Origin: a bacterium HR11
GTDB lineage: Bacteria > Acidobacteriota > HRBIN11
Direction of reading: 5' to 3'
Length of the DNA: 64,000 nucleotides
Assembly: GCA_002898535.1 (NCBI GenBank)
Contig: BEHN01000007.1
Span: 4,946-68,945 of the forward strand
Made by a program: the position numbers and the translations under genes. The notes below the pieces were generated by a model. It searched no databases. It saw only the letters and a program-made list of their open reading frames with translations, and was not told the DNA's origin. The first letter of the stretch is position 1. Each line of letters begins with the position of its first letter. Of this stretch, positions 30,750-63,815 are shown piece after piece.

Positions 30750-30751
30750 GG

Positions 30752-31789
30752 ATGGACCTGCAGAGCCGCATCGCGGAGTTTCGGCGTGCGTCCAGTGCGA
30801 CGGCACGGGCGAACGTCCTCCGCCGACTCGCCACGGAAGGCGGGCCTGAGGTCGAGGCCCTGCTGATGGAGGCGCTTCAGGACCCGGCGGCCGTCGTCCG
30901 GTACACGGCCCTCTCCGTCTTGGAAAGCCGAGGCACATACGACCGAGACACGGTCGTGCGGGCCCTGGGGGATTCTTCCAAGATGGTCCGTCGGCTGGCC
31001 CTACGGCTTCTCCAGCGTTGGCCTGACCCGGCCTTTCTGCCCATCGTGACGCCCTTTCTCGACGACGAGGACCTGGGCTTACGCCTGCTGGCGATGGACT
31101 GGCTCTTTGTGTTGGGCGAGGCGGGCTTACCGTACCTACAAGCCCTGCAGGAAGACACGATGTTCAGCGTCCGGATCAAGGCCCGCCATTACGTGCGGGA
31201 CCTTCGCCGGCGGTTCCCGACGTCGCGCCCGGCGGCCCCCCCGCCGGCGCCCTCGGTCCCAGAACCGGCCCGACCGACGCCCCCGACGGCCTCTTGGCGG
31301 GAGTCTTTGGAACGCCTGCCCATCGTGGAGGGCGCCGACAGCCGCCTTCTCATCGAGCGGATCCTCCAGGAAGGTGGGGAAGAAGCGGCTCGGGCCTTGA
31401 TTCATTTTTTAGAAGACCCCCGTTGGAACCGACGGGAGATGATCGTCCAGGCCCTCCGGAGTTACCCCCACTTTCCCAGCGTATACCTTCACCCCCTTCT
31501 GACTCATCCTCTTTGGTACGTCCGAGCCGCCGCCATCGAGCTGTTAGGCTCCTTTCAAGACCCCGTCCTCCTGGAGCACGCCACCCGCTTAGCCAAGGAC
31601 CCCAATATCGAGGTCCGGCGAGCCCTGGTCGGGGCGCTTCGCCATTTCCGCTTCGAAGAGGACGCCCGCCTCGTCCTGGAGGTCCTGGCCCGGGACGACC
31701 ACTTCCTGATCCGGCGGCTCGCCCGGGAGAGTCTCATCCAACTCCGGCAGACTTCTTCTTCGACGGGCCCGGAACCGGGGCTTTCATGA
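30752..31789 (+). CDS. HEAT-repeat (PBS-lyase-like) protein
   Basis: Repeated ...DPAAVVRYTALSVLE..., DSSKMVRRLALRLL, DPRWNRREMIVQAL, WYVRAAAIELL and DPNIEVRRALVGAL units, with a Pro-rich central linker. Confidence 0.6.
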   Translation: MDLQSRIAEFRRASSATARANVLRRLATEGGPEVEALLMEALQDPAAVVRYTALSVLESRGTYDRDTVVRALGDSSKMVRRLALRLLQRWPDPAFLPIVTPFLDDEDLGLRLLAMDWLFVLGEAGLPYLQALQEDTMFSVRIKARHYVRDLRRRFPTSRPAAPPPAPSVPEPARPTPPTASWRESLERLPIVEGADSRLLIERILQEGGEEAARALIHFLEDPRWNRREMIVQALRSYPHFPSVYLHPLLTHPLWYVRAAAIELLGSFQDPVLLEHATRLAKDPNIEVRRALVGALRHFRFEEDARLVLEVLARDDHFLIRRLARESLIQLRQTSSSTGPEPGLS

Positions 31790-33741: not shown

Positions 33742-33811
33742 GGATGCCTCCGCCGGTCCGGCGGTTCAACGGCCCGGTTGCCGAGGGACCGAACGGCCCT
33801 TATTATACTAC

Positions 33812-34160
33812 GGGAATTCGGCCATTCGGGAGTTCGGCAGTTCGGCCATAAGGCAGATGGGCAGAGCAGGGTGGGCTGACAGCAGCTGACGTGATTGTGG
33901 CTTTTTGGGTCATTGGATGGGATTTTATGGCACACGAGTAGCGAATGGCGAGTGGCGAGTAGCGAGTAGCGAATGGCGAGTAGCGAGTAGCGAATGGCGA
34001 GGACGGGGCGGTCCCCGGGGAGGCGTCCTGTGGCTCATAGGTCATATTAGCTCATGGGTCATGGCTCATGGTCCCATGAGCTATGAGCCAATAGGGGCCA
34101 TCGGCTTGCCGCCCGTCCACCGGCCTATCGGCCGAATGGCCGAACTCCCGAATTCCCGGC
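33812..34160. repeat. compound palindromic heptamer-repeat region: family B arms (33812-33850, 34130-34160) enclosing family D (GCGAGTAGCGAATGGCGAG, 33936-34000) and family E (CTCATGGGTCATGGCTCATGG, 34032-34092) arrays
   Basis: Successive 7-bp-period tandem arrays (GGGAATTCGG, GAGTAGC/GAATGGC, CATGAGC) are arranged as nested inverted repeats between mtnA and rpmH. Confidence 0.6.
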
Positions 34161-36720: not shown

Positions 36721-36917
36721 TGGGTTTGTGAAAGTGGCGTCGGGTCGGCTTTTTCCATGGCCCGAAAGAGACCCAGGAGGAATGGGGAGTGGGGAATGAG
36801 GAATGAGGAATGGGGAATGAGGAATGGGGAATGAGGGGGGCACATATGAGGTCATGGCTCATAGCCCATGAGCCATCAGCTATCAGCCATGAGCCGATCG
36901 GGGCCAAGAGCTATGAC
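36721..36917. repeat. family F (GGAATGGGGAATGAGGAATGAGG, 36770-36835) and family E (CATGAGCC, 36846-36917) heptamer arrays
   Basis: GGAATGGGGAGTGGGGAATGAGGAATGAGGAATGGGGAATGAGGAATGGGGAATGAG, then GGTCATGGCTCATAGCCCATGAGCCATCAGCTATCAGCCATGAGCC. Confidence 0.55.
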
Positions 36918-36920
36918 CTA

Positions 36921-37182
36921 ACAGAGCCGTTCGATTCGTGAGAATGGCGTCGGAACAACCTTTCCCAACGCCCGGGAAGCACGGTTTTTCAAGCATCCGG
37001 CAGATGGGCAGGTCGGCAGATAGGCAGATAGAAGCCGGGTGGGCAAGGATCAGCCCCAGGGCTTTTGGGACCATCTGCCCATCTGCCGAACTGCCTATCT
37101 GCCAAAGCTTGAAAAACCGTCCTCTCCGAAGGGTCGAAAAAGCCGAATCCATGCGGGTTTTCACGAACCGAACGGTTCTGTT
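36921..37182. mobile_element. MITE family A, full copy
   Basis: AACAGAGCCGTTCGATTCGTGAGAATGGCGTCGGAACAACCTTTCCCAACGCCCGGGAAGCACGGTTTTTCAAGC ... CCGAATCCATGCGGGTTTTCACGAACCGAACGGTTCTGTTA. It abuts the stop of the downstream minus-strand gene. Confidence 0.65.
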
Positions 37183-44383: not shown

Positions 44384-45100
44384 ATGGCGGCCACGCTGGA
44401 AGAACGCGTCGCTTACCTGGAGGGTCGAGTCGATGAACAATCGCGCCTGAGTGGAGAACTGCGGGACATGGTGTTCCATTTAGACCAGAAAGTCGACCGG
44501 TTCCGGGAGGAGCTGATAGCGGAGATTCGGGCCGTCGACCAGAAGGTGGACCGGTTCCGAGAAGAGCTGACGGCGGAGATTCGGGCCGTCGACCAGAAAG
44601 TCGACCGGTACCGTGAAGAACTGACGGCGGAGATCCGGGTCGTCGACCAGAAGGTCGACCGATTCCGGGAGGAGCTGATAGCGGAGATTCGGGCTGTCGA
44701 CCAGAAGGTGGACCGGTTCCGGGAAGAGCTGATGGCGGAGATTCGGGCCGTCGACCAGAAAGTCGACCGGTACCGTGAAGAACTGATGGCGGAGATCCGG
44801 GTCGTCGACCAGAAGGTCGACCGATTTCGGGAGGAGCTGATGGCGCAGATCCAGGCCGTGGACCAGCGGCTGTCGGCCGAGATTCGGGCCGTCGACCAAA
44901 AGGTCGACCGGTATCGGGAAGAGTTGTTAGCTCAGATGCAAGCCCTCGACCAGCGGCTGTCGGCCCGGATCCAGAGCTTAGAGCAAAAGGTTCGGGACTT
45001 GGACCAGCGGATGACCCGGTACTTCATATGGATTGTAGGCCTTCAGTTTGCGACGTTGGCGACCATCATCAGTCTACTTTTGAGCATATTGCTTCGGTAA
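44384..45100 (+). CDS. tail-anchored coiled-coil protein built from about 8 tandem 18-aa repeats (DQKVDRFREELIAEIRAV), inserted between nuoL and nuoM
   Basis: 238 aa. RBS GGAGGT lies 6 nt upstream. The N-terminal part is MAATLEERVAYLEGRVDEQSRL. Seven or eight near-identical 18-residue units with F/Y, I/T/M, A/V variation make up the middle. A single C-terminal TM helix, YFIWIVGLQFATLATIISLLLSILL, ends the protein. Confidence 0.6.
   Translation: MAATLEERVAYLEGRVDEQSRLSGELRDMVFHLDQKVDRFREELIAEIRAVDQKVDRFREELTAEIRAVDQKVDRYREELTAEIRVVDQKVDRFREELIAEIRAVDQKVDRFREELMAEIRAVDQKVDRYREELMAEIRVVDQKVDRFREELMAQIQAVDQRLSAEIRAVDQKVDRYREELLAQMQALDQRLSARIQSLEQKVRDLDQRMTRYFIWIVGLQFATLATIISLLLSILLR
44480..44940 (+). 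repeat. intragenic 54-bp tandem repeat (about 8.5 copies) with a 162-bp higher-order period
   Basis: GACCAGAA(A/G)GT(C/G)GACCGGT(T/A)CCG(G/T)GA(G/A)GA(G/A)CTGA(T/C)(A/G)GCGGAGAT(T/C)CGGG(C/T)CGTC units. Units 1-3 correspond one-to-one with units 4-6, with 1-3 substitutions each. Confidence 0.7.
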
Positions 45101-49075: not shown

Positions 49076-50161
49076 TCATGCCTTACGTCGGCGTTGAAGC
49101 CAGGCCTGGATAGCCTCGGGGATGCGATCAAGGGGAAGCGACTCGTCGGCCAGGCCAGCCTCGACGACGGCTCGGGGCATTCCGTAGACGGCGGCCGTCT
49201 CCTCGTGTTCGACGATGATGCGGCCCCCGACGGCCTTCACGGCGGCGGCGCCCTGCAGACCATCGTCGCCCATGCCGGTCAGGACAAGGCCCAGGACGGC
49301 CGTCCCGCAGGCCTCGGCCGCCGATCGAAACAGCCGGTCTACGGAAGGCACGTACTTATCCCGTCCGTCTGGGGACCGGAGCCGGATGCGGAGCTCGCCG
49401 CGGGCCAGCCAGACTTCCATATGGCGGCCGCCGGGGGCGACGTACACGACACCGGGTCGGACGACCTCGTCGTCCCCGGCCTCCCGGACCCGCAGGCCGG
49501 CGAGCTGGTCCAGCCGCTGGGCGAACATCGTCGTGAAGATGGGCGGCATGTGCTGAGCGATCAGGACGGCCGCCGGCAGGTCCGACGGGAGCCTCTGCAA
49601 GAGGTGGCGGATGGCCTGAGGTCCGCCCGTCGAGGCGCCGATCACGACGATGTCCGAGGGGGCCGGCTGGGCTTCCCAAAGGGGACTCGGCTTCCGGTGG
49701 GCCGGCCGGGCCGGCGTCTCCGAGGGCAGGGGCCCGGCGGCCGGTCGGAGCTTGCCCTGGGCGGCGACCCGGACCTTAGCGATGAGCTGTTCCTGAATCG
49801 TCGAGAGTCGGGGCGAGATAGGGCCGCCGGGCTTGGCGATGAAGTCGAGGGCGCCCATCTCGAGGGCCCGGAGGACGTTTTCGTCGGCCTCGTATGCGCT
49901 GATGACGATGACGGGCTTGGGCCGCTGGACCATCAGCCATCGCAGGAACGTGAAGCCGTCCATGTTCGGCATTTCCAGGTCCAGGGTGATGACGTCGGGG
50001 TCGTGTTCGAGGACCTTCTTGACGGCATGCTGACCGTCGTAGGCCGTATCGACGACCTCGATGTCGGGGTCTGACGACAGCATGCGGGTAATCGTCCGTC
50101 GGTTGTAAGCCGAGTCGTCGACGACGAGGACCCGAATCTTCTTCGCCTGCGGCGGCCGCAT
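49076..50161 (-). CDS. cheB: protein-glutamate methylesterase CheB (REC + methylesterase)
   Basis: 361 aa. The receiver domain is KIRVLVVDDSAYNRRTITRML...VITLDLEMPNMDG. The methylesterase domain is ...VVIGASTGGPQAIRHLL...AQHMPPIFT... Confidence 0.85.
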   Translation of the reverse strand: MRPPQAKKIRVLVVDDSAYNRRTITRMLSSDPDIEVVDTAYDGQHAVKKVLEHDPDVITLDLEMPNMDGFTFLRWLMVQRPKPVIVISAYEADENVLRALEMGALDFIAKPGGPISPRLSTIQEQLIAKVRVAAQGKLRPAAGPLPSETPARPAHRKPSPLWEAQPAPSDIVVIGASTGGPQAIRHLLQRLPSDLPAAVLIAQHMPPIFTTMFAQRLDQLAGLRVREAGDDEVVRPGVVYVAPGGRHMEVWLARGELRIRLRSPDGRDKYVPSVDRLFRSAAEACGTAVLGLVLTGMGDDGLQGAAAVKAVGGRIIVEHEETAAVYGMPRAVVEAGLADESLPLDRIPEAIQAWLQRRRKA

Positions 50162-50288
50162 CGGTCCGGTGTCTCCTTACAGAGGGTCTCCGGTCCCGGG
50201 GCCGGCTTCGGTGTTGGGTGCCGGTGCCGGTCGTTCGGCGGTCGGGGCCGCGCATCGCCGGACCCCTCAAAACCCGGCACCCGGGACC

Positions 50289-51161
50289 TCACTTCCGATA
50301 TACCATGTCATTTCGAAAATGGACGAGTTGGAATCGGCTGTCCAGCCCCAGGAGGGACTCGGAGTGCCCCAGGAGCAGGAAGCCGCCGGGACGGAGGCGC
50401 TCGTAAAAATTCTGGATCGCCCGTTTTTTGGCCTCGGTGTCGAAGTAGATCAGGACGTTGCGGCAGAAGATGACGTCCAGCCAGCCGTACAGGGCCAAGC
50501 TCGACGAATCCAGCAGGTTCACGCGTCCGAACAGGACCATCTGGCGGATCTCGTCCCGGATCCGAAGCCGGCCGTCAGGGGTCGGCTCAAAGTACTGGCG
50601 GACGTAGGCTTCATATTCGGGCTCCATGTCCCGAAACGACCCGCTCCCGTAGATGCCCTGACGGGCGACCTGGAGGGCCCGGCTCGAGATGTCGCTGGCG
50701 AAGATGAAGAGTTGCCATCCCGTCAAGACCGGGAGGCCCCGGAGGAGCATGGCGATCGAGTAAGGCTCCTCGCCGGTCGAACAGCCGGCGCTCCAGATAC
50801 GGAGGACGCGAGCGGGCTCGGCCCGCCGTTCCTGGACCAGGAGGGGGACGATCTCCTCGACAAAGCACCGCAGTTGGCGTTTTTCCCGGAAGAAGTAGGT
50901 CTCGTGGGTCGTCACCAGGTCGATGAGCTGGTCCATCTCCCGTTCCCGGTCGGGATGATACAGGAGGTGGTAGTAGTAGCGTTCCAAAGAGGGCAGGCCG
51001 AGGGCCCGCATGCGGTGGACGAGCCGCCGCTGGAGGACGAAGCGGGACTCCTTGTCGAAGCGGATGCCCGTTTGCCGGTAAATCAGGTCCACGAAGGCGT
51101 AAAACAGGTCGTCGCTCAGGATCTCACCGGTCTGAGACGAGTCCAGAGGCGGGTACCGCAT
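50289..51161 (-). CDS. cheR: chemotaxis protein methyltransferase CheR
   Basis: Start taken at MRYPPLDSSQTGEILSDDLFYAFVDLIYRQTGIRF (M31). The alternative GTG at 51251 would overlap the upstream stop, but those 30 codons are translated heptamer repeat. The SAM-dependent MTase core is ...RIWSAGCSTGEEPYSIAMLL... Confidence 0.85.
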   Translation of the reverse strand: MRYPPLDSSQTGEILSDDLFYAFVDLIYRQTGIRFDKESRFVLQRRLVHRMRALGLPSLERYYYHLLYHPDREREMDQLIDLVTTHETYFFREKRQLRCFVEEIVPLLVQERRAEPARVLRIWSAGCSTGEEPYSIAMLLRGLPVLTGWQLFIFASDISSRALQVARQGIYGSGSFRDMEPEYEAYVRQYFEPTPDGRLRIRDEIRQMVLFGRVNLLDSSSLALYGWLDVIFCRNVLIYFDTEAKKRAIQNFYERLRPGGFLLLGHSESLLGLDSRFQLVHFRNDMVYRK

Positions 51162-51247
51162 GCGTCCAATCCGTGGTCCCCGGTAACGCGTGACGAGTGA
51201 CGGGCCATGATCCTGGGGCAGGGGCAGACAGGCAGATGGGCAGGTCT

Positions 51248-53449
51248 TCACGGGTCATCCGAGGGTTCGATGAAAAAGGCGGCCCACTGCCGGAGGCGGT
51301 GAGGGCCGTATCGGTCCAGCGTCGCCCGCCAGGCGGGTCGAGCTTGAACGATTTCGATCCACTGGGGCCAGGTCTCTTCGAGATACAGCCACGGTCGGGC
51401 CCATGCGGGGACGTCGGGCAGGTCCAGGTGGGCGAGGACGGTCATCCACTCGGGCGGAGACAGCCACTGCTCGATAGGCGGCGCCGTCTCGGTCAGCCAG
51501 GCATCGAGGCGCCGGGCGTCCAGGACGGCCATCGTCGTCAGGCCCCGGACCTTCAGGCTGGTCTCCATCTCGGGGTCGAACCGTTGGCGGGCGAACTCGA
51601 AGGCGGCTTCGGCCTGGCGCCGCATGGCGGCCAGGCCCTCGAGGATCATACGCCGGTGGATCAAGTCCCGATGGTCGTACTCCTGGCGGTAGAACGTCAA
51701 GACCTCGGGGACGTCGAGCCGGCCGGCGTGGCGCAGGATCTCCAGGCGCAGGGGAAACTCGGCATGGTCGTAGTGGGCTTCCAGGATGGCGAGAGCAGAC
51801 GGATGGCCGGACCCGGCGAGCCGTCGGACCGAGGCGACCTGGCCCCAGAGGTCCGACCCGGCCAGCGTCGCCCGGAGGACGTCGATGAGGTCGGGCGCGT
51901 CGTCGGGATAGGCCAGGATGGCCCGCTCCCGGACGGCCGTATGTTCGTCGGCCAGGGCCATGCGCAGGAGACGATCGATCACGTCCCGGGGGAGGTCCGG
52001 TCGGTCGGCCCGCGTCGCATCTTCCAGGACCCGAAGGCGGACCCAGGGGGCCGGGTCCTGCATCCATGGAATGGCCCGCTGACGGAACTCGTCGGGGGCC
52101 AGGGCGGACCGGACGTCCACGGCGGCCGCCCGGCGCCAGGCCTGGGCGTCCTCGGTCCAGGCGGCCGTCCATCGGAGGAGCTCGGCGGCCCGGTCGGGCT
52201 CGGCCTGCTGTTCGGCCAGCCAGGCCCAGACGATGTCTTGGAGCTCCGGCGATTCCAGGGGCCAGGTGGATTCCAGCCAGACCCGGACTTCGGGCCAGGG
52301 GGCCTGCCGGAGAACGGCTTGCAGGGCGAAGGCCCGGGTCTCCGGCGCCAATCGGTCCCATCGGTCCAATACGGCGGTCCGGACGGTAGCGTCCTCTAAG
52401 AGGGGCGCCTGCCAGTAGAGCCAGGCGTGGAGGGCCTCCGGGCGTTCGAGACGGTCCCATATCGAGCGCCATCGGGCCGGGGTCAGGGACGGGAGCCACG
52501 GCAGGACCATCGAGACCCGTTCCGACTCGAGGGGATCGTCCAGTCGCTCTGGAAGGGTTTCCCCAAATTCGGGTCGCTGAAAGACGGCGGCCCAAAACTC
52601 AGCACTCCGGGCGACCTCTTCGGAGCCGTGGGCGAGCCAATCCCGCCAGGGCAGGGCGTCCAAGGCGTCGGTCGGGGGTGCCACCCGGGTCAGCCATTCG
52701 TGGAACCGGCGGACGTACCGCCGGAGCCATTCGTCCTTCCAGGGGACGGAAAACCACCGGAGGGTCCCCCGGAGGACGTTGTCCGCTAAGTCGGGCCGTC
52801 GGAGGGCCTCGACGGCGAGGGCCACGGCCCGAGCGTCGAAAAAGTAGCCCAGCGTCTGGAGAGCCGGCAGGTACAGCAGGGGGTCCTGAAGCAAGGCCGG
52901 CCAGAGGTCCAGAAGGTCCGGATGGCCGATCCGACCCAGGGCCTGAACGGTCTGGTAACGGACCCAGGGGTCGTCCGAGGCCAGCAGGGGTCGGAGGGCC
53001 GGGACAGCCGAGGCGAGGCCCAGGTGACCGATCGACTCGATGGCCGTCGTGACGACGTTGGGGTTCGGGTCGGTCAGACGCTTTTGGAGGTCCGGCCGGA
53101 GGTCGGGGTCCCGGGCCGTCCGGGCCAGTTGGACGGCAAAGAGACGGACGTCCGGGTGAGGCGATTCCATCAGCTCCCGGAGGACGTCCGGGATGTAGCG
53201 GCTCTGGGCCGTCAAGATTTGAAGGGCCGTGTTGCGACGGTTGGCGTGCTCGTCGTCTTGCAGGGCGTCGACGAGGATTTGGACCAGACGGGGATGATGA
53301 AGCCGAGTCAGCCAGGCGGCGAGCTGGCTTCGGAACTGCCAGTCTTCCGAGTCCAGGGCCTCGTAAAGGACGAGCCAGACCGAGTCGGGCCATGCCGTCG
53401 GCGGTCCCTGGGACTCCCACCATTCCATACGTTCCCATTCGGGTTTCAT
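51248..53449 (-). CDS. large HEAT-repeat (PBS-lyase-like) protein embedded in the che-like cluster
   Basis: 733 aa of repeated DPDVRLFAVQLARTARDPDLRPDL / DPNPNVVTTAIESIGHLG / DDPWVRYQTVQALGRIGHP units, then a long Trp/Arg-rich C-terminal region. Its position and type are analogous to Cpc7 of the Myxococcus Che7 system. Confidence 0.65.
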   Translation of the reverse strand: MKPEWERMEWWESQGPPTAWPDSVWLVLYEALDSEDWQFRSQLAAWLTRLHHPRLVQILVDALQDDEHANRRNTALQILTAQSRYIPDVLRELMESPHPDVRLFAVQLARTARDPDLRPDLQKRLTDPNPNVVTTAIESIGHLGLASAVPALRPLLASDDPWVRYQTVQALGRIGHPDLLDLWPALLQDPLLYLPALQTLGYFFDARAVALAVEALRRPDLADNVLRGTLRWFSVPWKDEWLRRYVRRFHEWLTRVAPPTDALDALPWRDWLAHGSEEVARSAEFWAAVFQRPEFGETLPERLDDPLESERVSMVLPWLPSLTPARWRSIWDRLERPEALHAWLYWQAPLLEDATVRTAVLDRWDRLAPETRAFALQAVLRQAPWPEVRVWLESTWPLESPELQDIVWAWLAEQQAEPDRAAELLRWTAAWTEDAQAWRRAAAVDVRSALAPDEFRQRAIPWMQDPAPWVRLRVLEDATRADRPDLPRDVIDRLLRMALADEHTAVRERAILAYPDDAPDLIDVLRATLAGSDLWGQVASVRRLAGSGHPSALAILEAHYDHAEFPLRLEILRHAGRLDVPEVLTFYRQEYDHRDLIHRRMILEGLAAMRRQAEAAFEFARQRFDPEMETSLKVRGLTTMAVLDARRLDAWLTETAPPIEQWLSPPEWMTVLAHLDLPDVPAWARPWLYLEETWPQWIEIVQARPAWRATLDRYGPHRLRQWAAFFIEPSDDP

Positions 53450-54312
53450 ACTTCGACGTCCTTGAAGAGATTCTGGACCTGACCGGACTGCTCGATTTCT
53501 CGAAGAAACTGTTCAAAGTAATCGTGGCGTTCCCATATCCGGGGGTCGACCCGACGCCGGTAATAGGCGTGGAACTCGGCGATCTCCCGACCCAGGGCCG
53601 AGCGCAGGTCGCCGGCCGCCAGGGCCGCCCGGACCCGGTCCATGTGGTACAGGATGAAGTCGGTCAGGAGGAGCCGGGCCAAGCGGCGGGCCTCTTCCTC
53701 ATCGCGGACCGTCGTCTCGGACTCGCCGGCCGGGGCGCGTCGGAGCAGGCGTTGAACGACCTCTTGGAAGCGGGGGATGGGGACGTCGGGCTCGATGTAC
53801 TCGTCGGCCCCATGGAATTGGACCGGCGGCCGGCGGTAGCGGCCCGGGTGGGTCAGCGAGGCCAACAGGATGACCGGCAAGTCCCGTAGGGCCCCATCCT
53901 GGCGGACCCGTTCGATGACCTCATAGCCCATCAGGCCGGGGAGCCACGCCTCGACGATGACCAAGTCCGGGGGGCTTCGGCGGACCGCCTCCCAGAGGGA
54001 CCGGCCGTCCGTGAAGATTTCCACGTCGGCCCCCATTTCCTGGACGAGGGGAGCCGTCAAGCGTTGAGCGACGCCCAGGTCGGCCGTCCCCATGTAGCAG
54101 AGGAAGGTCCGGACGGTCGCCGTCTGCGGTCGCATATAGTGCAGGACGTTCTGGAATCGAACGGGCGTCTCGGCCTCCGACCGCCGGACGACCAGGACGT
54201 GGCGGCACACGGGGCACCTCAGGCGGACCCCCGCGGCCTGAGGCTTCCAGGGGATCCGCAGACGCCGACCGCATCCCGTACACGTGACGGCAATCCGCTC
54301 AGAAGACTCCAT
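53446..54312 (-). CDS. zinc-ribbon (MJ0042-type) + pseudo-receiver domain protein
   Basis: Start at MESSERIAVTCTGCGRRLRIPW...LRCPVCRHVLVV (CxxC...CxxC). The receiver-like fold has Glu in place of the phospho-acceptor Asp (LVIVEAWLPG) and CYMGT in place of the acidic pair. The C-terminal about 100 aa domain is unassigned. Confidence 0.55.
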   Translation of the reverse strand: MESSERIAVTCTGCGRRLRIPWKPQAAGVRLRCPVCRHVLVVRRSEAETPVRFQNVLHYMRPQTATVRTFLCYMGTADLGVAQRLTAPLVQEMGADVEIFTDGRSLWEAVRRSPPDLVIVEAWLPGLMGYEVIERVRQDGALRDLPVILLASLTHPGRYRRPPVQFHGADEYIEPDVPIPRFQEVVQRLLRRAPAGESETTVRDEEEARRLARLLLTDFILYHMDRVRAALAAGDLRSALGREIAEFHAYYRRRVDPRIWERHDYFEQFLREIEQSGQVQNLFKDVEV

Positions 54313-54372
54313 GATCCTGCGAGCCCGACCGCTCGGGCGCTCCGTCCATACTCGTCTTACAGCCACGGCGGA

Positions 54373-55176
54373 TTATACCACAAGGGCCGAGCGGACGGAA
54401 CGGACCAGATCGGCGTCGATCGAGGTCCGGTCCTGGGCGAAGGCTTCCATCAGGGCCAGGTGAGCCAGGTGGTTGACGACGCGCGGATAGCCCTCCGAAA
54501 GAGCGGCGATCGCCTCGACGGCGTCCGGCCGGAAGGGCCCCGGCCAAGTGCCCCCGGCCTGTTCCCACCGGTGGCGGATGTAGGTCGGCACCTCCTCGGG
54601 CCGCAAGGGGACTAACCGAAGATGCATGCTGATGCGCTGGCGGAAAGCAGTGTAAGCCCGCCGCCGGAGGGTCGCCTCAATTTCCGGCTGGCCGACCAAG
54701 ACGATGCCCAAGAGGTTGGCCGTGTCCAGCTGAAGGTTGCTCAGGAAGCGGATCTCATCGAAGACGGCCTTGCCGGGTAGGAGATGGGCCTCGTCCAAGA
54801 CGAGGGCCGCGCCCTGGCCGCCCTGCCAGAGGTCGACAAGCCGGTCGGCCAACTGATTCATCAAGACGGAACGAGACCGGGCCGGCGGGACGTCCAAGGC
54901 CGTGGCCAGTTGGGTTAGCAGTTGGTAGGGCGTCATCCGGGGATAGACGAGGACGACGACCCGGATGGACGCCGCCTCAGCTTGCTGGAGGGCCGCCCGG
55001 ACGACGGTCGTCTTGCCGACCCCGACGGCCCCCGTCAGGAGGACCATCTCCCGCTCCTCGAGGGCATACTGAACCATGGCGAGGGCTTGCTCGTACTGGG
55101 GGAGCCAGCACACGTACCGGGGGTCCGGCGTGTTCCGGAAGGGCAGGTCCGTCAAACCGAAGTAGGCCTCGTACAT
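54373..55176 (-). CDS. ExeA/GspA-like AAA ATPase (AAA_16-type), no peptidoglycan-binding domain
   Basis: 267 aa: MYEAYFGLTDLPFRNTPDPRYVCWLPQYEQALAMVQYAL (ExeA N-terminus). Walker A is GAVGVGKTT, Walker B is LVLDEAH, followed by ...RFLSNLQLDTANLLGIVLVGQPE...RQRISMHLRLVPL... Confidence 0.7.
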   Translation of the reverse strand: MYEAYFGLTDLPFRNTPDPRYVCWLPQYEQALAMVQYALEEREMVLLTGAVGVGKTTVVRAALQQAEAASIRVVVLVYPRMTPYQLLTQLATALDVPPARSRSVLMNQLADRLVDLWQGGQGAALVLDEAHLLPGKAVFDEIRFLSNLQLDTANLLGIVLVGQPEIEATLRRRAYTAFRQRISMHLRLVPLRPEEVPTYIRHRWEQAGGTWPGPFRPDAVEAIAALSEGYPRVVNHLAHLALMEAFAQDRTSIDADLVRSVRSALVV

Positions 55177-55181
55177 GGGCT

Positions 55182-55365
55182 ATTCGGCCGTCCGGGAATT
55201 CGGGCGTCCGGTAATCCGGCCGTTCAGGAATTCAGCCGTCTGGCATAAAGGGTCGGGGGAGGTCACCCGGACCTACCGTCCAAGCCGGTGTATCCGGCCA
55301 CGGCCGGATTCCTGAACGCCCGAACTCCCGGACTGCCGGACGGCCGAGCTCCCGAATTCCCGAAT
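55182..55365. repeat. family B GAATTCGGG palindrome inside the che-like cluster (between AAA gene and cheA)
   Basis: CCGGGAATTCGGGCGTCCGGTAATCCGGCCGTTCAGGAATTCAGCCG ... GGATTCCTGAACGCCCGAACTCCCGGACTGCCGGACGGCCGAGCTCCCGAATTCCCGAATAGCCGG. Confidence 0.6.
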
Positions 55366-55374
55366 AGCCGGTCT

Positions 55375-57393
55375 TCACGTCCGCCGCGGGAAGACCCGCG
55401 CCGTCAAGCTGATGGGGTCCAGGACCAGGACGGGCCGGTCCTCGCCGATCTCGGCGGCCCCGCTGATGCCCCGAAGCTCCTGAAGACGGGCCGGGATCCG
55501 TTTGATGACGATCTCCTGCATCCGTTCGACCCCATCGACGCACAGGGCAAACCACTGCCGGCCGGCCCGACTGACGATGGCGAATCCCCCGTCCCGGGCG
55601 TCCGTCAGTCGAAAGATCTGACCCAGCCGGATCAAGGGGACCGTCCCCTCGTGGTAATGCAGGAGCTCCTGGCCCTCGACCTGTCGGAGATGCTCGGGCC
55701 GGACCTCGACGATTTCCTGGACCAGGGCGAGGGGGACGGCAAATCGCTCCGGGCCGACCCGGACGATCACGGCCGGGACGATGGCCAGCGTGATGGGGAG
55801 CGAGATCTCGAAGGTCGTTCCCTGACCGGCCTCCGTGTGGACCGTCACGGTCCCGTTCAGGCGCTCGATGGTCTGCTTGACGATGTCGAGGCCGACGCCC
55901 CGGCCCGAGACCTCGCCGACCCGTTCGGCCGAGGAGAACCCCGGCTCGAAGATGAGCCGCAGGACGTCCTGGACGGTGACCTCGGCCTGCTCGTCGATGA
56001 GGCCCATCTGGATGGCCCGCCGGCGGACCTTTTCCAACTGAATCCCCCGGCCGTCGTCGGCGATGCGCAGGGCGATCCGCTGACCGACCTGGGCCGCCTC
56101 GATACGGACCGTCCCCGTCTCGGGCTTCCCTTGCGCCCGTCGCTCGTCGGGTGCCTCGATGCCGTGATCGACGGCGTTTCGCAGGATGTGCACGAGAGGG
56201 TCCATGATGTGCTCGATGAGGACCTTATCGAGGCGGGTCTCGCCGCCCAGGAAGACCGTCTGGACCTGCTTGCCGGCCTGACGGGCCAGCCGGCGGACCA
56301 TCCGCTCCAGGCGGCCGTAGACCGTCCCGATGGGGACCAGCCGGAGCTCCAGCAAATGCCGTTGGGCTTCCCCCAGGCGGGTGGCCATCTCCTGGGTGAG
56401 CTGAAGGAGAGCTGTCAGGGAGCCGGCGATCTCCGGAAAACGGCTCTGGAGGTCTCGGATCAGGCTCTCCTGCCGGGACCGGAGGACGGCGGCCTCCCCC
56501 ACGACGTTCAGGACGGCATCCAGAGCCTGCAGGTCGACCCGGACGGAGCGGCTGAGGTCTCGTAGAAAGGCCGGCTCGGCCTCGGCTTCCGAGGGTTCGG
56601 CCTCGGCCTCGACGGCGGGCCGACCTGGCTCAGCCGGGGGTATGCCCTCGGGGGGGTACAGCAGGTCCAGCCGGGTCGGGGCGGTCGGAAGCAAGTCCCC
56701 CACGGCGTCCGGGGCTACCCGCGAGGCCCATAGCAGACGGAAACCGATCTGGTCCGGGTCGGTCCCGGCCTCCGGGAGCGTGCTGATGAGCTCGCCGTGC
56801 TGATTCAGGACGGCATTCGCCTCCCGGAGGACCCGGTCGAAGTCGGCGAAGGGCAGTCGAAGGTAAATCGAGTAGATACGCAGGCCCTGGCGGACCGCCT
56901 CCCGGAGACGGTGCTCCTCGTACTCGGTCAGCGACTGGCGAGTCGCCGCATCCAGGGCCAGACGGTCCAGGGGGTCGGCCTCGGCCGACAGGACGGGCCG
57001 TTGAATGCTTTCGACAAAGCGGTCGACGGCCTCGAGGGCTTGGTCCAGGTCGATGACCTCGGTCGTCCCGGCCGTCTCTTGGAGCAAGCGTTGAAGCGTC
57101 TCCAAAGAGTCGAACAGCAAGTCGACCAGGTGGGGCGACACGGGGATCTTCCCCAGACGGACCCGGTCGAGGACGTCCTCGAGCCGGTGGGTGTAAGTGC
57201 TCAGCCGCGTGTAGCCCAGCATGGCCGAGAGGCCCTTCAGGGAGTGATAGCTCCGAAAGAGCTGGTTCACGAGGTCGGCCTTGAACTGACCGACTCGGGC
57301 GTACTGCTCGAACTGCCGGAGGACGTTCCCGATGGCCTCCAGGATGTCCTGGGCCTCGGCCAGGAATTCGGGGTTCAGCTCTCGGGCGGCCAC
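55375..57393 (-). CDS. cheA: chemotaxis histidine kinase CheA (HPt - dimerisation - HATPase_c - CheW-like)
   Basis: Start taken at GTG (V119 of ORF 55375..57747), overlapping the cheY 3' end by 19 nt. Upstream codons are out-of-frame cheY sequence. The HPt domain is ...FRSYHSLKGLSAMLGY. The ATPase domain carries ...DDGRGIQLEKV...GRGVGLDIV... A C-terminal CheW-like domain is present. Confidence 0.85.
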   Translation of the reverse strand: MAARELNPEFLAEAQDILEAIGNVLRQFEQYARVGQFKADLVNQLFRSYHSLKGLSAMLGYTRLSTYTHRLEDVLDRVRLGKIPVSPHLVDLLFDSLETLQRLLQETAGTTEVIDLDQALEAVDRFVESIQRPVLSAEADPLDRLALDAATRQSLTEYEEHRLREAVRQGLRIYSIYLRLPFADFDRVLREANAVLNQHGELISTLPEAGTDPDQIGFRLLWASRVAPDAVGDLLPTAPTRLDLLYPPEGIPPAEPGRPAVEAEAEPSEAEAEPAFLRDLSRSVRVDLQALDAVLNVVGEAAVLRSRQESLIRDLQSRFPEIAGSLTALLQLTQEMATRLGEAQRHLLELRLVPIGTVYGRLERMVRRLARQAGKQVQTVFLGGETRLDKVLIEHIMDPLVHILRNAVDHGIEAPDERRAQGKPETGTVRIEAAQVGQRIALRIADDGRGIQLEKVRRRAIQMGLIDEQAEVTVQDVLRLIFEPGFSSAERVGEVSGRGVGLDIVKQTIERLNGTVTVHTEAGQGTTFEISLPITLAIVPAVIVRVGPERFAVPLALVQEIVEVRPEHLRQVEGQELLHYHEGTVPLIRLGQIFRLTDARDGGFAIVSRAGRQWFALCVDGVERMQEIVIKRIPARLQELRGISGAAEIGEDRPVLVLDPISLTARVFPRRT

Positions 57394-57821
57394 GCTGGCT
57401 CCTCCTGGGGCATAGACGGCAAGGCCTGTTCGTAACGAAGCCAGATCGTCCGGACGACCTGGGCCAGGTGGTCCGGCCGGAAGGGCTTGACGACGTAAGC
57501 GTCGGCCCCAAGGGCCATGCCCCGGCGCTGGTCCTCGGCGGCGCCCTCGGTCGACACGATGACGATGGGGATCTGGCGGTACGTCGGATGGGTCTTCAGG
57601 AAGCGGATGAGCTCCAGGCCGTTCATGTCCGGCATGTTGATGTCCGTGATGATGAGGTCGACGGCCAGGCCCGGCAGGAGCCGGAGGGCGTCGAAGCCGC
57701 TGGGGACCTCCAGGCTCTGGACGCCGGGGAAGAAGGCCTGGAGACACATCCGGATGTAGCCCCGCATCGTCTCCGAGTCCTCGATGACCATCACCGAACG
57801 CAGGGGCCGCCCTGCCGTCAT
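57375..57821 (-). CDS. cheY: CheY-like single-domain response regulator
   Basis: 148 aa: canonical receiver VMVIEDSETMRGYI...DLIITDINMPDMNGLEL...PIVIVSTEG...YVVKPF. Confidence 0.85.
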   Translation of the reverse strand: MTAGRPLRSVMVIEDSETMRGYIRMCLQAFFPGVQSLEVPSGFDALRLLPGLAVDLIITDINMPDMNGLELIRFLKTHPTYRQIPIVIVSTEGAAEDQRRGMALGADAYVVKPFRPDHLAQVVRTIWLRYEQALPSMPQEEPAWPPES

Positions 57822-59467
57822 CGGAATACCGCCTGACTCAGACGTCGGTTCAGGATGGCATTCTCGATGGCGAAACTCGCCTGATGGAGGAAGATCTCCA
57901 GATACGTCAGGTCGCCCAGGGGTCGGCCCGTGACGGCGTTATCCCCGTAGAAGAAGCCGACCGTCTGGTCCTGGACGACGAGGGGAATGATCACGTATTC
58001 CGAGGGCCGAAAGCGACCGATGGTCTGAACGAAGGCGTCCAGCCACGCCGACGCCTCGGCGGCCGACCGCCGGACGGGCTGGCCCGTCTGAGCGACGACC
58101 GCAAAGTCGCCGACGGGTTCGGGCAATCGGATTCGCCGGACCTTCAGGGGCATCGCTTCGTCGTCGCCCGTATCGCCGAATCCGCCGAGGCCGACGACGC
58201 CTTGCGGCGTGTTCAGAAACAGCAGGCCCCGGTCCAGGAATTCGGCGGCGAACTGCAGGATCAGGAGCGAGATCTGGGGCGCCTCGGAGGGATGCCGCAG
58301 GTCCGCCAGGGCCTGCTTCAATTGGGCCATGAGCTTCGAAAGGCGGGCCTCCGGGGTTTCTTCCTGGAAGGGCTCGTCCAGGCCGAGCTCCCGCCACAGC
58401 CGCTCCATGATGTCCGGGGCCGACGGCCTCGGCCGGGCGCTTTGAGTCGCCCGAAGCATTCGCAAATGGTCCAACAAGACTTGGGCCAAGATGTGGGCAT
58501 GCCCCCGGACCTCCCGCGGCGACCCCGCCGGGATGAAGGGGCTTTGCAAAAGGTGCACGTTCCATGCCCGTCGCAGGGCTTCATCCAGGTCCGGCTGGAT
58601 GTACCGGTACACCAGGAGGATGGGGACTCCACCGGCCCGTTGGCGGACGGCCTGAATCCACGCCAAGGGTTCCCGGAGTACGTCCACGTCCACGACGACG
58701 GTAACGTCCGAAGCCAGCCGCTGCCATTCGACGACCCGGTTCAGGATTTCGTCGGGGTTCGTCTCAGAAAGCTCGACGACGACAGCACCCCGCTGGATCA
58801 GCGTATGGGACAGGTACGACCGGACCACGGCTTGGGGGAACGCCAGGAGGACCGACAGGCCCTCCAACGAGGCTTCCGTCTCCGCCTCCTCCTCGGCTAA
58901 GCCGATGGCTCCGCCAGGCCCCGCCGGGGCGGTCGCCGGCCGCAAGAGCTGGCTCTCGTCCCGAAGTTTCATCGCATCCAATAAGAGTTGCTGGGCGTTC
59001 AGGCCCTTCTCCAGGAGGACCAGGTCGATGGGGTCGACCCGAATCTCGTCGTAGGGGATGATCTCGGTCAGATGAAAGGTAAAGGTGCCCCGCGGGAACT
59101 GAAGGAGTTCGTAGACAATCCGATAAATCTGCTGTTTGACGACCAGCTCGAGGGCTTCCCGGGTGAGCCACCCCTGCTGGACGAGGATCTGACCGAGGGG
59201 CTGATGGACCTTCTGCTGACGTTGCAAGGCGAGGGCCTGTGTTAGCTGATCGGGCTGGAGGACCCCGTACTCGACCAGAGCCTGGCCCAAGCTCTTCTGG
59301 TTCTTCCCCTGCAGGAGGGCGCTCACGACCTGGCCGTTCTTAAAAATGATGATGCCCCGCCGTCGGTCCTCGGATTCGACCTCCAGGATGCCCGTCCGCT
59401 TGCTGAGGCTGATGATCTGGATGATATCGGTCAATGACAAATCTTCCAGACTGCCCGTCAGGCTCAT
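57818..59467 (-). CDS. DUF4388/PATAN domain - receiver-like - GAF-like signalling protein (PatA/PixG-type regulator)
   Basis: 549 aa. The N-terminal DUF4388 domain is GSLEDLSLTDIIQIISLSKRTGILEVESEDRRRGIIIFKNGQVVSA...GTFTFHLTE. The middle receiver-like fold has no canonical phospho-Asp. The C-terminal part is GAF-like (...LLFLNTPQGVVGLGGFGD...). The 4-nt overlaps with nusB upstream and cheY downstream suggest coupling. Confidence 0.65.
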   Translation of the reverse strand: MSLTGSLEDLSLTDIIQIISLSKRTGILEVESEDRRRGIIIFKNGQVVSALLQGKNQKSLGQALVEYGVLQPDQLTQALALQRQQKVHQPLGQILVQQGWLTREALELVVKQQIYRIVYELLQFPRGTFTFHLTEIIPYDEIRVDPIDLVLLEKGLNAQQLLLDAMKLRDESQLLRPATAPAGPGGAIGLAEEEAETEASLEGLSVLLAFPQAVVRSYLSHTLIQRGAVVVELSETNPDEILNRVVEWQRLASDVTVVVDVDVLREPLAWIQAVRQRAGGVPILLVYRYIQPDLDEALRRAWNVHLLQSPFIPAGSPREVRGHAHILAQVLLDHLRMLRATQSARPRPSAPDIMERLWRELGLDEPFQEETPEARLSKLMAQLKQALADLRHPSEAPQISLLILQFAAEFLDRGLLFLNTPQGVVGLGGFGDTGDDEAMPLKVRRIRLPEPVGDFAVVAQTGQPVRRSAAEASAWLDAFVQTIGRFRPSEYVIIPLVVQDQTVGFFYGDNAVTGRPLGDLTYLEIFLHQASFAIENAILNRRLSQAVFR

Positions 59468-61330: not shown

Positions 61331-61465
61331 CAATGAGGAATGAGGATTGAGGAATGTGGAATGGAATTCCCCATTCCTCACCCCTCATTCCTCATTCCTC
61401 ATTCCCCATTCCCCATTCCTCACTCCTCACTCCTCACTCCCCATTCCTCATTCCCCATTCCTCCC
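61331..61465. repeat. family F palindrome (AATGAGGAATGAGGATTGAGGAATGTGGAATGGAATTCCCCATTCCTCA...CCATTCCTCATTCCCCATTCC)
   Basis: 7-bp periodic inverted arrays lie between the dCMP deaminase stop and the argF start. Confidence 0.6.
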
Positions 61466-62469: not shown

Positions 62470-62740
62470 CATTCAGGAATCCGGGAATCCGGCCGTTCGG
62501 GAGTTCGGGAATTGGGTAAGTGGGATGCGGATGTCACTGTCCCATAAGTCCATCCTGGATGCGCGGTATACGTCCCCTTCAGACCTTGCTCCCACGGGTC
62601 CCATCCCGATGAAGGTCGTGGGAACGGAGGACCGACCCGCGACGGACGTCGCCCCCGGGACGCCCGTCGGACGGTGGACATCCCTCGGCCGACCTTCCGA
62701 ATCCCCGGATGCCCGGATTCCCGAATCCCCTATTCCGAGA
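62470..62740. repeat. family B palindrome arms (62471-62515, 62697-62740) around a 180-bp core
   Basis: TTCAGGAATCCGGGAATCCGGCCGTTCGGGAGTTCGGGAATTGGG ... CCGAATCCCCGGATGCCCGGATTCCCGAATCCCC. Confidence 0.55.
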
Positions 62741-63815
62741 CGGGCCATCGGTCGATGCCCAGCAGGGAGGGGTCCCCGTCGGCCAGCACGCGAACGAGCT
62801 CTTCGTAAAAGTAGTCCCGCTGGGCGACGACCGACCGGGGGAACCGCTCGAGGTAGACCTTCCGACTCCGCTCGATGTCCTCCCGCAGGCGTTCATAGAG
62901 GTCCCGGTACTGACGGCCCATGACGACTTGCTGTTCGTTGTACATCTTGATTTCCTGGACAAGCAGACGGGCGAAGCGTTGCGCCTCTTCGTGGAGTCGC
63001 TTTTCCTCGGGGGCGACCTCAGGCGGGGCCGGGGCCGGCGGCTCGGCGGCCTGGGCCTTGCGGGTCTGGATCCACTTCAACCGGGAAGGCATCGTCTCGA
63101 CGGCCATGGCGGCGTGCCGGACGAGGATCTCGATGGCCATCGGCTCTTCCGGCTTCCAGGGACCCGACCGACGGTCCGCATAGAGGAGACCGACCGGCTT
63201 GCCTTTCACGAGGATCGGGAACAGGGCAAAGACCTCGGGAAGGTACCCGGCCATTTCCTGTAAGATGGCCTGATCGGCGGGCCCAAAGGGCGGCGTCGCC
63301 ACCTGGGTCGTCTGCGACTCATAGCACCGGGCCCAGGCACTGGGAGTATCCAGGGGGACTGAAAAGTTCCGAAACCGTTCCCCGTCCGCCCCGACCCCCT
63401 GCAGGCGGAGCCCCTGCCAGCCGACCAGGGCGTTTCCTCGAACGACGAAGACGGCGATCCCGTCGCAAAAACCCGAGACACCCCGCAAGAGGGCCTGTAG
63501 CAGGGCCCCCTGGGTCTCGGCCATGTCGATGGCGTCCACGGCCTCCATCAAAGCCGGTAGGGGCGACGGCGGAGGCGGCGGGAGAAGCTCGACGACCTGG
63601 GCCGCCCAGTCGGCGACGGGCTGGTCGATGTTCGGGACGGACCAACCATGGACCGTCTCTTCCAGTTGAACCAGGGACTGCTCGAGGGCCTGAAAAACCT
63701 GCCGCAAACGCTGGAGCACCTCGCCGACCCGCTCCTGTTGCTGACGGCCCGTCTCCTGAAGCAGGCTGGCGACCCGCTCCGCTAAAAAGCCCCGGATTTC
63801 GTCGATAAGTTCCAT
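62730..63815 (-). CDS. hypothetical GAF-domain-containing protein
   Basis: 361 aa. The N-terminal part is coiled-coil. The central GAF-like fold is ...GIAVFVVRGNALVGWQGLRL...ILVKGKPVGLLYADRRSG... The C-terminal part is basic and helical (KMYNEQQVVMGRQYRDLYERL). The antisense ORF 62709..63263 was rejected. Confidence 0.5.
   Translation of the reverse strand: MELIDEIRGFLAERVASLLQETGRQQQERVGEVLQRLRQVFQALEQSLVQLEETVHGWSVPNIDQPVADWAAQVVELLPPPPPSPLPALMEAVDAIDMAETQGALLQALLRGVSGFCDGIAVFVVRGNALVGWQGLRLQGVGADGERFRNFSVPLDTPSAWARCYESQTTQVATPPFGPADQAILQEMAGYLPEVFALFPILVKGKPVGLLYADRRSGPWKPEEPMAIEILVRHAAMAVETMPSRLKWIQTRKAQAAEPPAPAPPEVAPEEKRLHEEAQRFARLLVQEIKMYNEQQVVMGRQYRDLYERLREDIERSRKVYLERFPRSVVAQRDYFYEELVRVLADGDPSLLGIDRWPVSE

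Follow-up and report, generated by a model that had tools for sequence, protein, structure and literature searches.

A che gene cluster of bacterium HR11 that very probably belongs to the beta-group (Esn) family, with a predicted RomX connection to an MglA-type GTPase

What does a cluster of chemotaxis (che) genes signal with when it holds neither a gene for a methyl-accepting chemotaxis protein (MCP) nor one for the adaptor CheW? The question is raised by a 64-kb stretch of DNA, hereafter the window (64,000 nucleotides [nt]; contig BEHN01000007.1 of assembly GCA_002898535.1, positions 4,946 to 68,945), from bacterium HR11, a metagenome-assembled genome (MAG) from a hot spring that is left unclassified by NCBI. 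Eight co-directional genes on the minus strand of the window (49076-59467) encode, in order, a PATAN (DUF4388) lead protein, CheY, CheA, an AAA+ ATPase, a zinc-ribbon (ZnR) protein with a pseudo-receiver, a HEAT-repeat protein, CheR, and CheB (open reading frame [ORF] listing with Pfam and NCBIfam scans). A preliminary description of this DNA had read the cluster as a chemosensory pathway of alternative function, fed by HEAT, GAF, and AAA modules rather than by a chemoreceptor, and had considered the combination of ATPase, ZnR protein, and HEAT protein within a che operon to be undescribed. The gene content and the non-flagellar, alternative function are supported by our analysis; the receptor-less input and the novelty of the trio are not. 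What is new is the reduced form that the cluster takes in HR11 and its wide presence in Acidobacteriota.

Che clusters without mcp genes were named the beta group by Tran et al. (2008); they have been reported in Geobacter, Stigmatella, Anaeromyxobacter, Plesiocystis, and Myxococcus xanthus and described as specific to delta-proteobacteria (PMC2577667). In G. sulfurreducens, the order runs from EngA (GSU2225) through a response regulator (GSU2224), CheY (GSU2223), CheA (GSU2222), and an ATPase (GSU2221) to CheW (GSU2220) (PMC8242959; PMC5585712). A profile search with the ZnR protein reached the Geobacteraceae at a locus of Geotalea sp. SG265 (L088), which is ordered era-der-PatA_N/REC-CheY-CheA-AAA_22-CheW(310)-REC-CheW(160)-ZnR/REC-HEAT(671)-CheR-CheB-GAF-REC (REC, receiver). 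When compared with this locus by BLASTP, all eight HR11 proteins have their best match in the protein at the corresponding position, in the same order and with 24-47% identity: 30% over the full length for the PATAN protein (against PatA_N-REC), 46% for CheY, 37% over the full length for CheA, 40% over the full length for the ATPase, 24% over the full length for the ZnR protein, 27% over part of the 671-aa HEAT protein, 47% for CheR in an alignment that begins at residue 45, and 45% for CheB. Both clusters have cheA, cheR, and cheB without an mcp gene, a PATAN lead gene followed by cheY and then by a cheA without a C-terminal receiver, an AAA_22 gene directly after cheA (the position of GSU2221), and, immediately upstream of cheR-cheB, the gene for the ZnR protein (which ends in a RomX domain, see below) and a HEAT gene of ~700 aa. 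Two features of the group are missing from HR11. There is no CheW gene after the ATPase gene (the position of EsnB), where the ATPase stop at 54373 abuts the ZnR start, as it does in two related genomes (L005 and L006), and there are no GAF and single-domain REC genes 3' of cheB. Taken together, the proteins and their order make the HR11 locus very probably a member of the beta-group (Esn) family, and the trio is not new as a gene arrangement because the Geobacteraceae cluster is colinear with it (PMC2577667; PMC5585712).

The family extends well beyond the delta-proteobacteria. The closest relatives of the HR11 ZnR protein come from Acidobacteria MAGs, and a scan with its profile over one genome per species (genes annotated with phmmer) gave 80 loci, nearly all from Thermoanaerobaculia/Acidobacteriota. 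Gene order was counted in the 58 loci that span cheA to cheR. The order CheA-AAA22-CheW-ZnRREC-HEAT-CheR is found in 56 of the 58 (in four of these 56, stop-to-stop calling fuses the ZnR ORF with the HEAT ORF or makes the two overlap), and the AAA_22 gene lies directly downstream of cheA in all 58. The full order is ribH-nusB-PATAN-CheY-CheA-AAA22-CheW(~240 aa)-ZnRREC-HEAT(~740 aa)-CheR-CheB-GAF-REC-(unknown 440 aa)-HEAT(~300 aa), and no MCP gene lies within 10 kb of any AAA22-type Acidobacteriota locus. The two loci that lack CheW are L005 and L006, which form a clade with HR11 (their ZnR proteins are 94% and 85% identical to that of the window); the trailing GAF and REC genes are also absent from this clade. 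In the Thermoanaerobaculia CheW (e.g., L001:3213-3905), the CheW domain is preceded by a basic motif that is conserved at the N-terminus, MVDLVKIRKKAK, and by a linker of low complexity. This CheW gene starts within the 3' end of the ATPase gene, a hint that the two proteins form a complex. In two Myxococcota-like contigs (L003 and L004), CheW-CheW-MCP(~855 aa) stands exactly where the others hold AAA22-CheW, and the AAA22(-CheW) and CheW-CheW-MCP arrangements never co-occur in the loci compared, which suggests that CheW-CheW(-MCP) takes the place of AAA22 in the myxobacterial form. The L004 MCP has ~60 close orthologues, which belong to its own clade (one is named Myxococcota), and none comes from Acidobacteria, Thermoanaerobaculia, or HR11, in a search confined to this MCP class.

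The Geobacter system shows where the receptor of such a cluster can be. GSU2222 (EsnC), GSU2220 (EsnB), and GSU1704 (EsnA) are all needed for electrode colonization, and the three proteins interact in a two-hybrid assay (Chan et al., 2017; PMC5585712). EsnA is a GAF-containing MCP of class 40H that is encoded in trans, and insertions in the ATPase gene GSU2221 give the same defect in transposon sequencing (Tn-seq) as the genes for electrode colonization (PMC5585712). The claim that HEAT, GAF, and AAA modules replace the chemoreceptor as input is thus not borne out: the Geobacter CheA and CheW bind EsnA, and CheR and CheB are intact in HR11, which argues for a methyl-accepting receptor elsewhere in its genome.

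Among the core che proteins of HR11, CheY (57375..57821, 148 aa) is a canonical single-domain receiver (Response_reg, E=1e-24), and the signature residues D/D/T/K are present in its sequence and alignment. CheA (55375..57393, 672 aa) has Hpt, dimerization, HATPase_c, and CheW-like P5 domains, lacks a C-terminal receiver (Pfam), and starts at a GTG preceded by GGAGGA. CheR (50289..51251; CheR, E=7e-56, and CheR_N) probably starts, on alignment with homologues, at the ATG at 51161, ~30 codons later, which would give a protein of 290 aa; the orthologous ORF in L005 has 293 aa. CheB (49076..50161), with an N-terminal receiver, matches CheB_methylest (E=2e-63) and, above its cut-off, NF001965 (400 bits), and its catalytic motifs GASTGG, QHMP, and GMGDDG are all present. 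The signature or catalytic motifs of all four proteins are thus intact. All eight ORFs of the cluster have the codon-position G+C pattern of real genes and are intact in the three genomes of the HR11 clade, and all eight genes are under purifying selection, with ratios of nonsynonymous to synonymous substitution (dN/dS) of 0.07-0.32 in pairwise comparisons with L005 and L006 (nusB, 0.16). Judged from these sequences, the HR11 cluster is real and functional and not a remnant, because its ORFs are intact in three genomes, dN/dS is low, and the signature motifs are kept.

The output of the pathway is suggested by the ZnR protein (53446..54366, minus strand), which has at most 306 aa (288 aa in the NCBI call; an alternative start lies at 54312) and matches zinc-ribbon and Response_reg families in Pfam. 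A zinc ribbon with four Cys (aa 25-60; nt 54187-54294; Pfam and AlphaFold2 model) is followed by a pseudo-receiver (aa 88-209; nt 53740-54105; Pfam and Foldseek) and by a three-helix domain (aa 216-300; nt 53467-53721). All 78 family members compared retain the four Cys. As the preliminary description had noted, Glu replaces the acceptor Asp in HR11 (E139, in VIVEAW); across the 78 members, the acceptor position is N in 73, E in three (the HR11 clade), D in one, and A in one, and the conserved receiver Lys is Glu in 78 of 78. The protein thus lacks the residues of a phosphorylatable receiver, while its receiver fold is confirmed. The AlphaFold2 model (63 sequences; mean predicted local distance difference test [pLDDT], 83.6) has a ribbon of four strands (aa 25-60), a receiver fold, and a helical C-terminus at aa 220-294 with helices at 220-240, 242-272, and 275-294. 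Foldseek matches the model to solved receivers with template-modelling (TM) scores of 0.82-0.87. Searches with the full-length model are dominated by the receiver, and the C-terminal domain was identified from a sequence profile instead. This profile (A5) has no match in Pfam; against PDB sequences, it matches residues 2-79 of M. xanthus RomX (8zna; E=1.5e-23, 85.8 bits). R228, R231, and D236 of the HR11 protein correspond to R11, R14, and D19 of RomX and show no variation in two alignments, one of 18 and one of 63 sequences. In RomX, these helix-1 residues are required for the binding of MglA-GTP and for nucleotide exchange (bioRxiv 10.1101/2024.02.20.581209). Since its C-terminus is a RomX domain, the ZnR protein is better read as a putative output connector than as the input module that it had been taken for, and its RomX domain suggests that the che pathway is probably linked to an MglA-type polarity GTPase, rather than being a case of receptor-less sensing. 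RomR, MglA, and MglB occur in Myxococcales, Geobacter/Pelobacter, and Acidobacteria (PMC3441718), and these are the taxa that carry the che cluster.

A second RomX-like domain is encoded near the cluster. Three kilobases upstream, on the same strand, a gene at 62730..63815 encodes a 361-aa GAF protein (GAF, 23.9 bits) with a RomX-like C-terminus (aa 264-346; nt 62778-63026). The RomX-domain hidden Markov model (HMM) matches this protein with E=2.9e-16 (hmmsearch), and R, R, and E align with R11, R14, and D19 of RomX. The gene is conserved only in the HR11 clade (L005 and L006), where its dN/dS is 0.05-0.07, and its association with the che cluster is probable; it looks like a second fusion of a putative sensor to RomX beside the cluster. 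The RomX-like domain itself is common: profile A5 matches 4517 representative clusters (50% identity) among 1.84 billion proteins, 3001 of them at E<=1e-10, and its carriers include stand-alone proteins of ~90 aa and, at the other extreme, proteins with two to five tandem copies (e.g., one of 968 aa with five). Seven of ten sampled matches have a receiver, and six have a zinc ribbon and a receiver; ZnR-REC-RomX is a common architecture among these proteins. Tandem proteins of ZnR, REC, and RomX folds have already been noted by Foldseek in a study that leaves their chemosensory gene context unmentioned (bioRxiv 10.1101/2024.02.20.581209). On a Thermodesulfovibrionales-like contig (L086), a ZnR-REC-RomX gene lies outside any che cluster and is adjoined by a rhomboid protease gene and two divergent MCP genes; the family is therefore not strictly tied to beta-group clusters.

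The lead gene (57818..59467, minus strand) encodes a 549-aa protein for which Pfam, NCBIfam, and hhalign bear out the assignment of a DUF4388/PATAN domain, a receiver-like domain, and a GAF domain. The PATAN domain spans aa 4-165 (DUF4388, E=2e-31). The middle of the protein (aa 195-313; nt 58529-58885) aligns with the CheY family in hhalign with 96% probability (E=4e-9); it retains the acceptor Asp and has lost the acidic pair, the Thr, and the Lys. The GAF-like domain (aa 403-535; nt 57863-58261) has a weak Pfam score of 22.5 bits. Every orthologue retains the PATAN domain at its N-terminus and the GAF-like domain at its C-terminus. Within a helical insertion of the PATAN domain (aa 60-113; nt 59129-59290), the protein carries a predicted cyclic di-GMP (c-di-GMP)-binding motif of the MshEN type (NF053729 c-di-GMP_motif, 45.4 bits against a cut-off of 38). 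The form tested was the tandem [R/x]LGxx(L/V/I)(L/V/I)xxG(L/V/I)(L/V/I)xxxxLxxxLxxQ, and both copies (LGxxLVxxG...Q) are readable in HR11. The motif is present in the HR11 clade, in Geotalea (L088), and in one acidobacterial lineage (L065) and is eroded in most Thermoanaerobaculia.

The two remaining accessory proteins, an ExeA-like ATPase and a HEAT-repeat protein reminiscent of Cpc7, also keep the domain assignments first given to them. The ATPase (54373..55176, minus strand, 267 aa) matches AAA_22 (E=2e-21) and, over its full length, TIGR03015 (190.5 bits, below the cut-off of 324.5). It consists of the AAA module only, without a peptidoglycan-binding domain (Pfam). Walker A and B are intact, with G49-G52-G54-K55-T56-T57 and D128-E129 invariant in 22 orthologues, and among proteins of solved structure, MuB, TnsC, and Cdc6-type AAA+ proteins are closest to it in sequence. 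The HEAT-repeat protein (51248..53449, minus strand, 733 aa; HEAT_2, E=1e-27) has an orthologue of ~740 aa in the corresponding place of every locus, with cheR always the next gene downstream.

The reading that we prefer, and in which we place moderate confidence, is that of a reduced beta-group cluster with a receptor encoded in trans and an output linked to a GTPase. CheA would autophosphorylate and act as phosphodonor for CheY and for the CheB receiver. It would be controlled by a methyl-accepting receptor, probably together with CheW, whose genes would lie at another genomic site, like that of EsnA in Geobacter; this receptor would be adapted by CheR and CheB. The AAA+ ATPase may be a nucleotide-dependent factor for assembly or remodelling of the CheA signalling complex; in Geobacter, the phenotype that depends on CheA and CheW also requires the homologous ATPase. 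The accessory proteins would form the output side of the pathway and not its input side. The ZnR/pseudo-receiver/RomX protein is predicted to dock MglA-GTP through helix 1 of its RomX domain, and its zinc ribbon may dock MglB, by analogy with the zinc ribbon of GltJ, which recruits MglB (PMC11135422); the GAF-RomX protein of the HR11 clade could also couple the pathway to a GTPase of MglA/MglB type. The HEAT protein might serve as a scaffold regulated by phosphorylated CheY, by analogy with Cpc7 and CheY7. The PATAN/pseudo-receiver/GAF protein, predicted to be non-phosphorylatable, would integrate c-di-GMP and may contact a type IV pilus motor, by analogy with cyanobacterial PATAN regulators, which are reported to bind the pilus motor (bioRxiv 10.1101/2021.06.11.447907). 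The net effect would be control of surface behaviour, cell polarity, or biofilm and not flagellar chemotaxis.

Several observations weigh against this reading. The receptor and the GTPase partners are assumed, neither being observed within the window, and the HR11 clade alone lacks the CheW gene that other family members keep beside the ATPase gene. No MglA or MglB was found in the window or within 10 kb of any related locus in a search with M. xanthus queries, which is a weak negative. The helix-3 residues by which RomX binds the receiver of RomR are not conserved in HR11 (Q-S versus L-R/K), and the biochemical role of RomRX is itself disputed between guanine nucleotide exchange factor and effector (PMC13408092). 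Finally, the downstream output in the published Geobacter model is EsnD, a response regulator with a GGDEF domain, and not MglA (PMC5585712).

This last point leads to an alternative that we consider rather unlikely, in which the pathway acts through a second messenger on matrix or biofilm and the RomX, ZnR, and PATAN modules are internal scaffolds without any link to MglA or to a pilus. It draws on what is known from Geobacter: Esn mutants fail to colonize electrodes, EsnD is a diguanylate cyclase, an insertion in GSU2224 gives an aggregating, oxygen-tolerant biofilm (PMC8242959), and mutants of beta-group cluster 5 alter the expression of extracellular matrix, according to a preliminary, unpublished observation (PMC2577667). 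The c-di-GMP-binding motif predicted in the HR11 PATAN protein fits it as well. However, the invariance, across at least 78 family members, of the residues that contact MglA-GTP in the RomX domain is hard to explain without a GTPase partner, and the taxa that carry the cluster are those known for RomR, MglA, and MglB; moreover, a matrix or biofilm output and a GTPase output are not mutually exclusive.

The receptor-less reading, in which the AAA+ ATPase, the HEAT protein, and the GAF/pseudo-receiver modules drive CheA directly, without MCP or CheW, while CheR and CheB act on a substrate other than an MCP, has become improbable. It draws on the absence of MCP genes within 10 kb of any AAA22-type locus, on the mutual exclusion of AAA22(-CheW) and CheW-CheW-MCP (L003 and L004), on the lack of orthologues of the L004-type MCP outside its own clade, and on the purifying selection that acts on all genes in the HR11 clade in spite of the loss of CheW. 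Conversely, the Geobacter cluster has the same ATPase and still needs and binds EsnA, which is encoded in trans; CheR and CheB are intact and conserved and have no known substrate other than MCPs; mcp genes are commonly scattered around genomes (PMC2577667); and the search for MCP and CheW covered the 64-kb window only. A stronger form of the same idea, in which AAA+, HEAT, GAF, and c-di-GMP modules would set the activity of CheA in the HR11 clade independently of receptor and CheW and the signal would pass straight to MglA via the RomX domains, seems to us slightly more doubtful still; if true, it would be a pathway of a chemotaxis kinase without a chemoreceptor array. Least probable by far is decay, that is, a non-functional che cluster that has lost its CheW, MCP, GAF, and REC genes. 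Five genes of the Geobacteraceae cluster, three of them present in Thermoanaerobaculia, are indeed absent from HR11, but the eight ORFs that remain are unbroken in three clade genomes, their dN/dS is comparable to that of nusB, and the catalytic motifs are retained.

The most useful new point is the RomX domain, duplicated in the HR11 clade, together with the c-di-GMP motif. Clusters of Esn/Che8 type are conserved in Geobacteraceae, Myxococcota, and many Acidobacteriota, and the Geobacter system controls electrode colonization; their accessory genes become testable links to polarity GTPase signalling. A link to MglA/MglB, if true, would be a second route, independent of Frz, from a chemosensory kinase to cell polarity. 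The HR11 clade offers a natural minimal version that lacks the CheW, GAF, and REC genes and is nevertheless constrained, which helps to define the core parts.

Within the window, the layout of the cluster bears out the preliminary description. The common direction of the eight genes stands, as do 4-nt overlaps at the nusB/PATAN, PATAN/CheY, and ZnR/HEAT junctions (at the first, the lead gene overlaps the nusB stop codon), and CheY and CheA overlap by 19 nt. Gaps of 198 nt and 127 nt separate cheA from the ATPase gene and cheR from cheB, and how tight the ATPase/ZnR and HEAT/CheR junctions are depends on the start codons chosen. The cheA/ATPase gap (55177..55374, no strand) is possibly an operon break. 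It contains a 16/8-nt tandem array that forms an imperfect inverted repeat with arms of 67 nt that are 73% complementary (repeat search and Tandem Repeats Finder); this repeat was rejected as a regulatory element specific to the cluster because the same class of 7-8-nt arrays occurs in many intergenic regions of the window. Scans for promoters and terminators gave nothing exceeding shuffled sequences. Housekeeping genes lie on both sides: nusB, ribH, argF, and a dCMP deaminase gene upstream and the convergent nuoL/M/N downstream, with a lone 104-aa ORF without family match between cheB and nuoN; the GAF gene and single-domain REC gene expected after cheB are absent. The absence of MCP and CheW genes, first stated for the cluster, extends to the whole window. 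Among ~47 of its ORFs, Pfam found no MCPsignal domain or stand-alone CheW, the only match being CheA P5, and phmmer with MCP and CheW queries from relatives found nothing beyond CheA P5 in ORFs of at least 60 aa. A role in anti-phage defence was also considered and set aside, the PADLOC matches being only weak, generic P-loop and HEAT similarities.

Other features of the window concern its repeats and a few unusual genes. Short tandem arrays of 7- or 8-nt units (GGCAGATG, TTCGGGAA, GGTCTAT, GGAATGG, ATTCCTC, and others) lie in most intergenic regions, often as inverted pairs around a gap; the sites include 1825-1954, 7391-7423, 8925-9067, 11359-11616, 13418-13570, 19433-19485, 25251-25658, 33811-34001, 36777-37103, 55182-55364, and 61332-61463, and the arrays appear to be a genome-wide repeat class. 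Between nuoL and nuoM, an ORF at 44384-45100 (plus strand) consists of a 54-nt (18-aa) tandem repeat in ~7 copies of 85-94% identity. Its second-position G+C is very low (0.31), and Pfam gives only coiled-coil or apolipoprotein-like noise; it is an unusual insertion within the nuo operon. An RtcB RNA ligase gene (21245-24436, plus strand; 1063 aa) is interrupted by an intein (Intein_splicing match between the RtcB halves). A 504-aa ORF without Pfam match (14678-16192, minus strand) lies in a stretch with a G+C content of 0.58, against ~65% for the 64-kb window, which may be foreign DNA. At 28924-31789 (plus strand), ribE and ribBA are followed by a gene for a 345-aa HEAT-repeat protein, 28 kb from the ribH-nusB pair that is joined to the che cluster. 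This HEAT gene (30752-31789) was examined as the terminal HEAT gene of the family, relocated by a rearrangement that split the rib and che genes, and was rejected: its product has only generic HEAT similarity to the HEAT proteins of the cluster, and its best matches are the long ones.

Among known systems, che cluster 5 of G. sulfurreducens (the electrode-sensing network Esn, GSU2212-2224 region) is closest, in gene order, in all eight homologous proteins, and in the lack of an mcp gene within the cluster. The Geobacteraceae cluster differs in having two CheW genes on either side of a CheY-like gene and, following cheB, a GAF and a REC gene, none of which is found in HR11, and in the receiver of the PATAN protein, canonical in Geotalea and degenerate in HR11. 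It follows era-der, whereas the HR11 cluster is fused to the nusB operon, and HR11 is an Acidobacteriota-related thermophile MAG, whereas the beta group was described as delta-proteobacterial. The Thermoanaerobaculia/Acidobacteriota version (L001, L007-L084) shares the gene order and the linkage to nusB with HR11, with 43-47% identity between the AAA22 proteins. Unlike HR11, it always has the ~240-aa CheW with the N-terminal MVDLVKIRKKAK motif after the ATPase, and GAF, REC, 440-aa unknown, and second HEAT genes after cheB; its pseudo-receiver has Asn and not Glu at the acceptor position, and most of its members lack the MshEN motif. In M. xanthus, the Che7 order CheY-CheA-CheW-MCP-HEAT(Cpc7)-CheR-CheB parallels the HR11 cluster and shares the HEAT gene beside cheR (PMC3945109), but Che7 has its own cytoplasmic MCP (Mcp7) and CheW (CheW7). 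In Che8 (MXAN_4751-4759), CheW is encoded twice, an MCP is missing, and cheW8a is separated from cheR8 by two unnamed genes (PMC3945109; PMC6194562). Because these two genes lie where the ZnR-REC-RomX and HEAT genes would sit, Che8 is probably the myxobacterial member of the beta group; from position, we infer that GSU2216/2217 and MXAN_4754/4755 are the counterparts of the two genes. No AAA_22 ATPase has been reported for Che7 or Che8, in contrast to HR11.

Other systems resemble single parts of the cluster. The cyanobacterial Tax/Pix and the Pil-Chp systems (Tfp class) share the lead pair of PATAN-REC and CheY; they have a hybrid CheA-REC and an MCP and CheW within the cluster, whereas the HR11 CheA lacks a receiver, MCP and CheW genes are absent, and CheR and CheB are present. 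ExeA/GspA, MshM, and the TIGR03015 PEP-CTERM-associated ATPases are similar to the 267-aa AAA+ module over its full length and belong to the same AAA_22 family. The score, domain content, and context of the HR11 ATPase, however, set it apart from both the ExeA/GspA ATPases of type II secretion and the XrtA-associated ATPases of TIGR03015: it falls below the 324.5 cut-off, lacks the peptidoglycan-binding domain and a GspB or secretin partner, and stands among che genes and not in a secretion, pilus, or exopolysaccharide locus. The RomR/RomX-MglA/MglB and Frz systems of M. xanthus bear on the proposed output. The HR11 cluster lacks the C-terminal domain of RomR and has no mglA or mglB nearby; it shares the RomX domain and its MglA-binding residues R11, R14, and D19, and its RomX domain is joined to a domain of receiver fold as RomX is to the receiver of RomR. 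A chemosensory pathway would thus be coupled to the GTPase module, as Frz is to MglA/MglB/RomR, with the difference that in HR11 a single polypeptide joins the RomX domain covalently to a zinc ribbon and a non-phosphorylatable receiver, and its gene is part of the che cluster itself.

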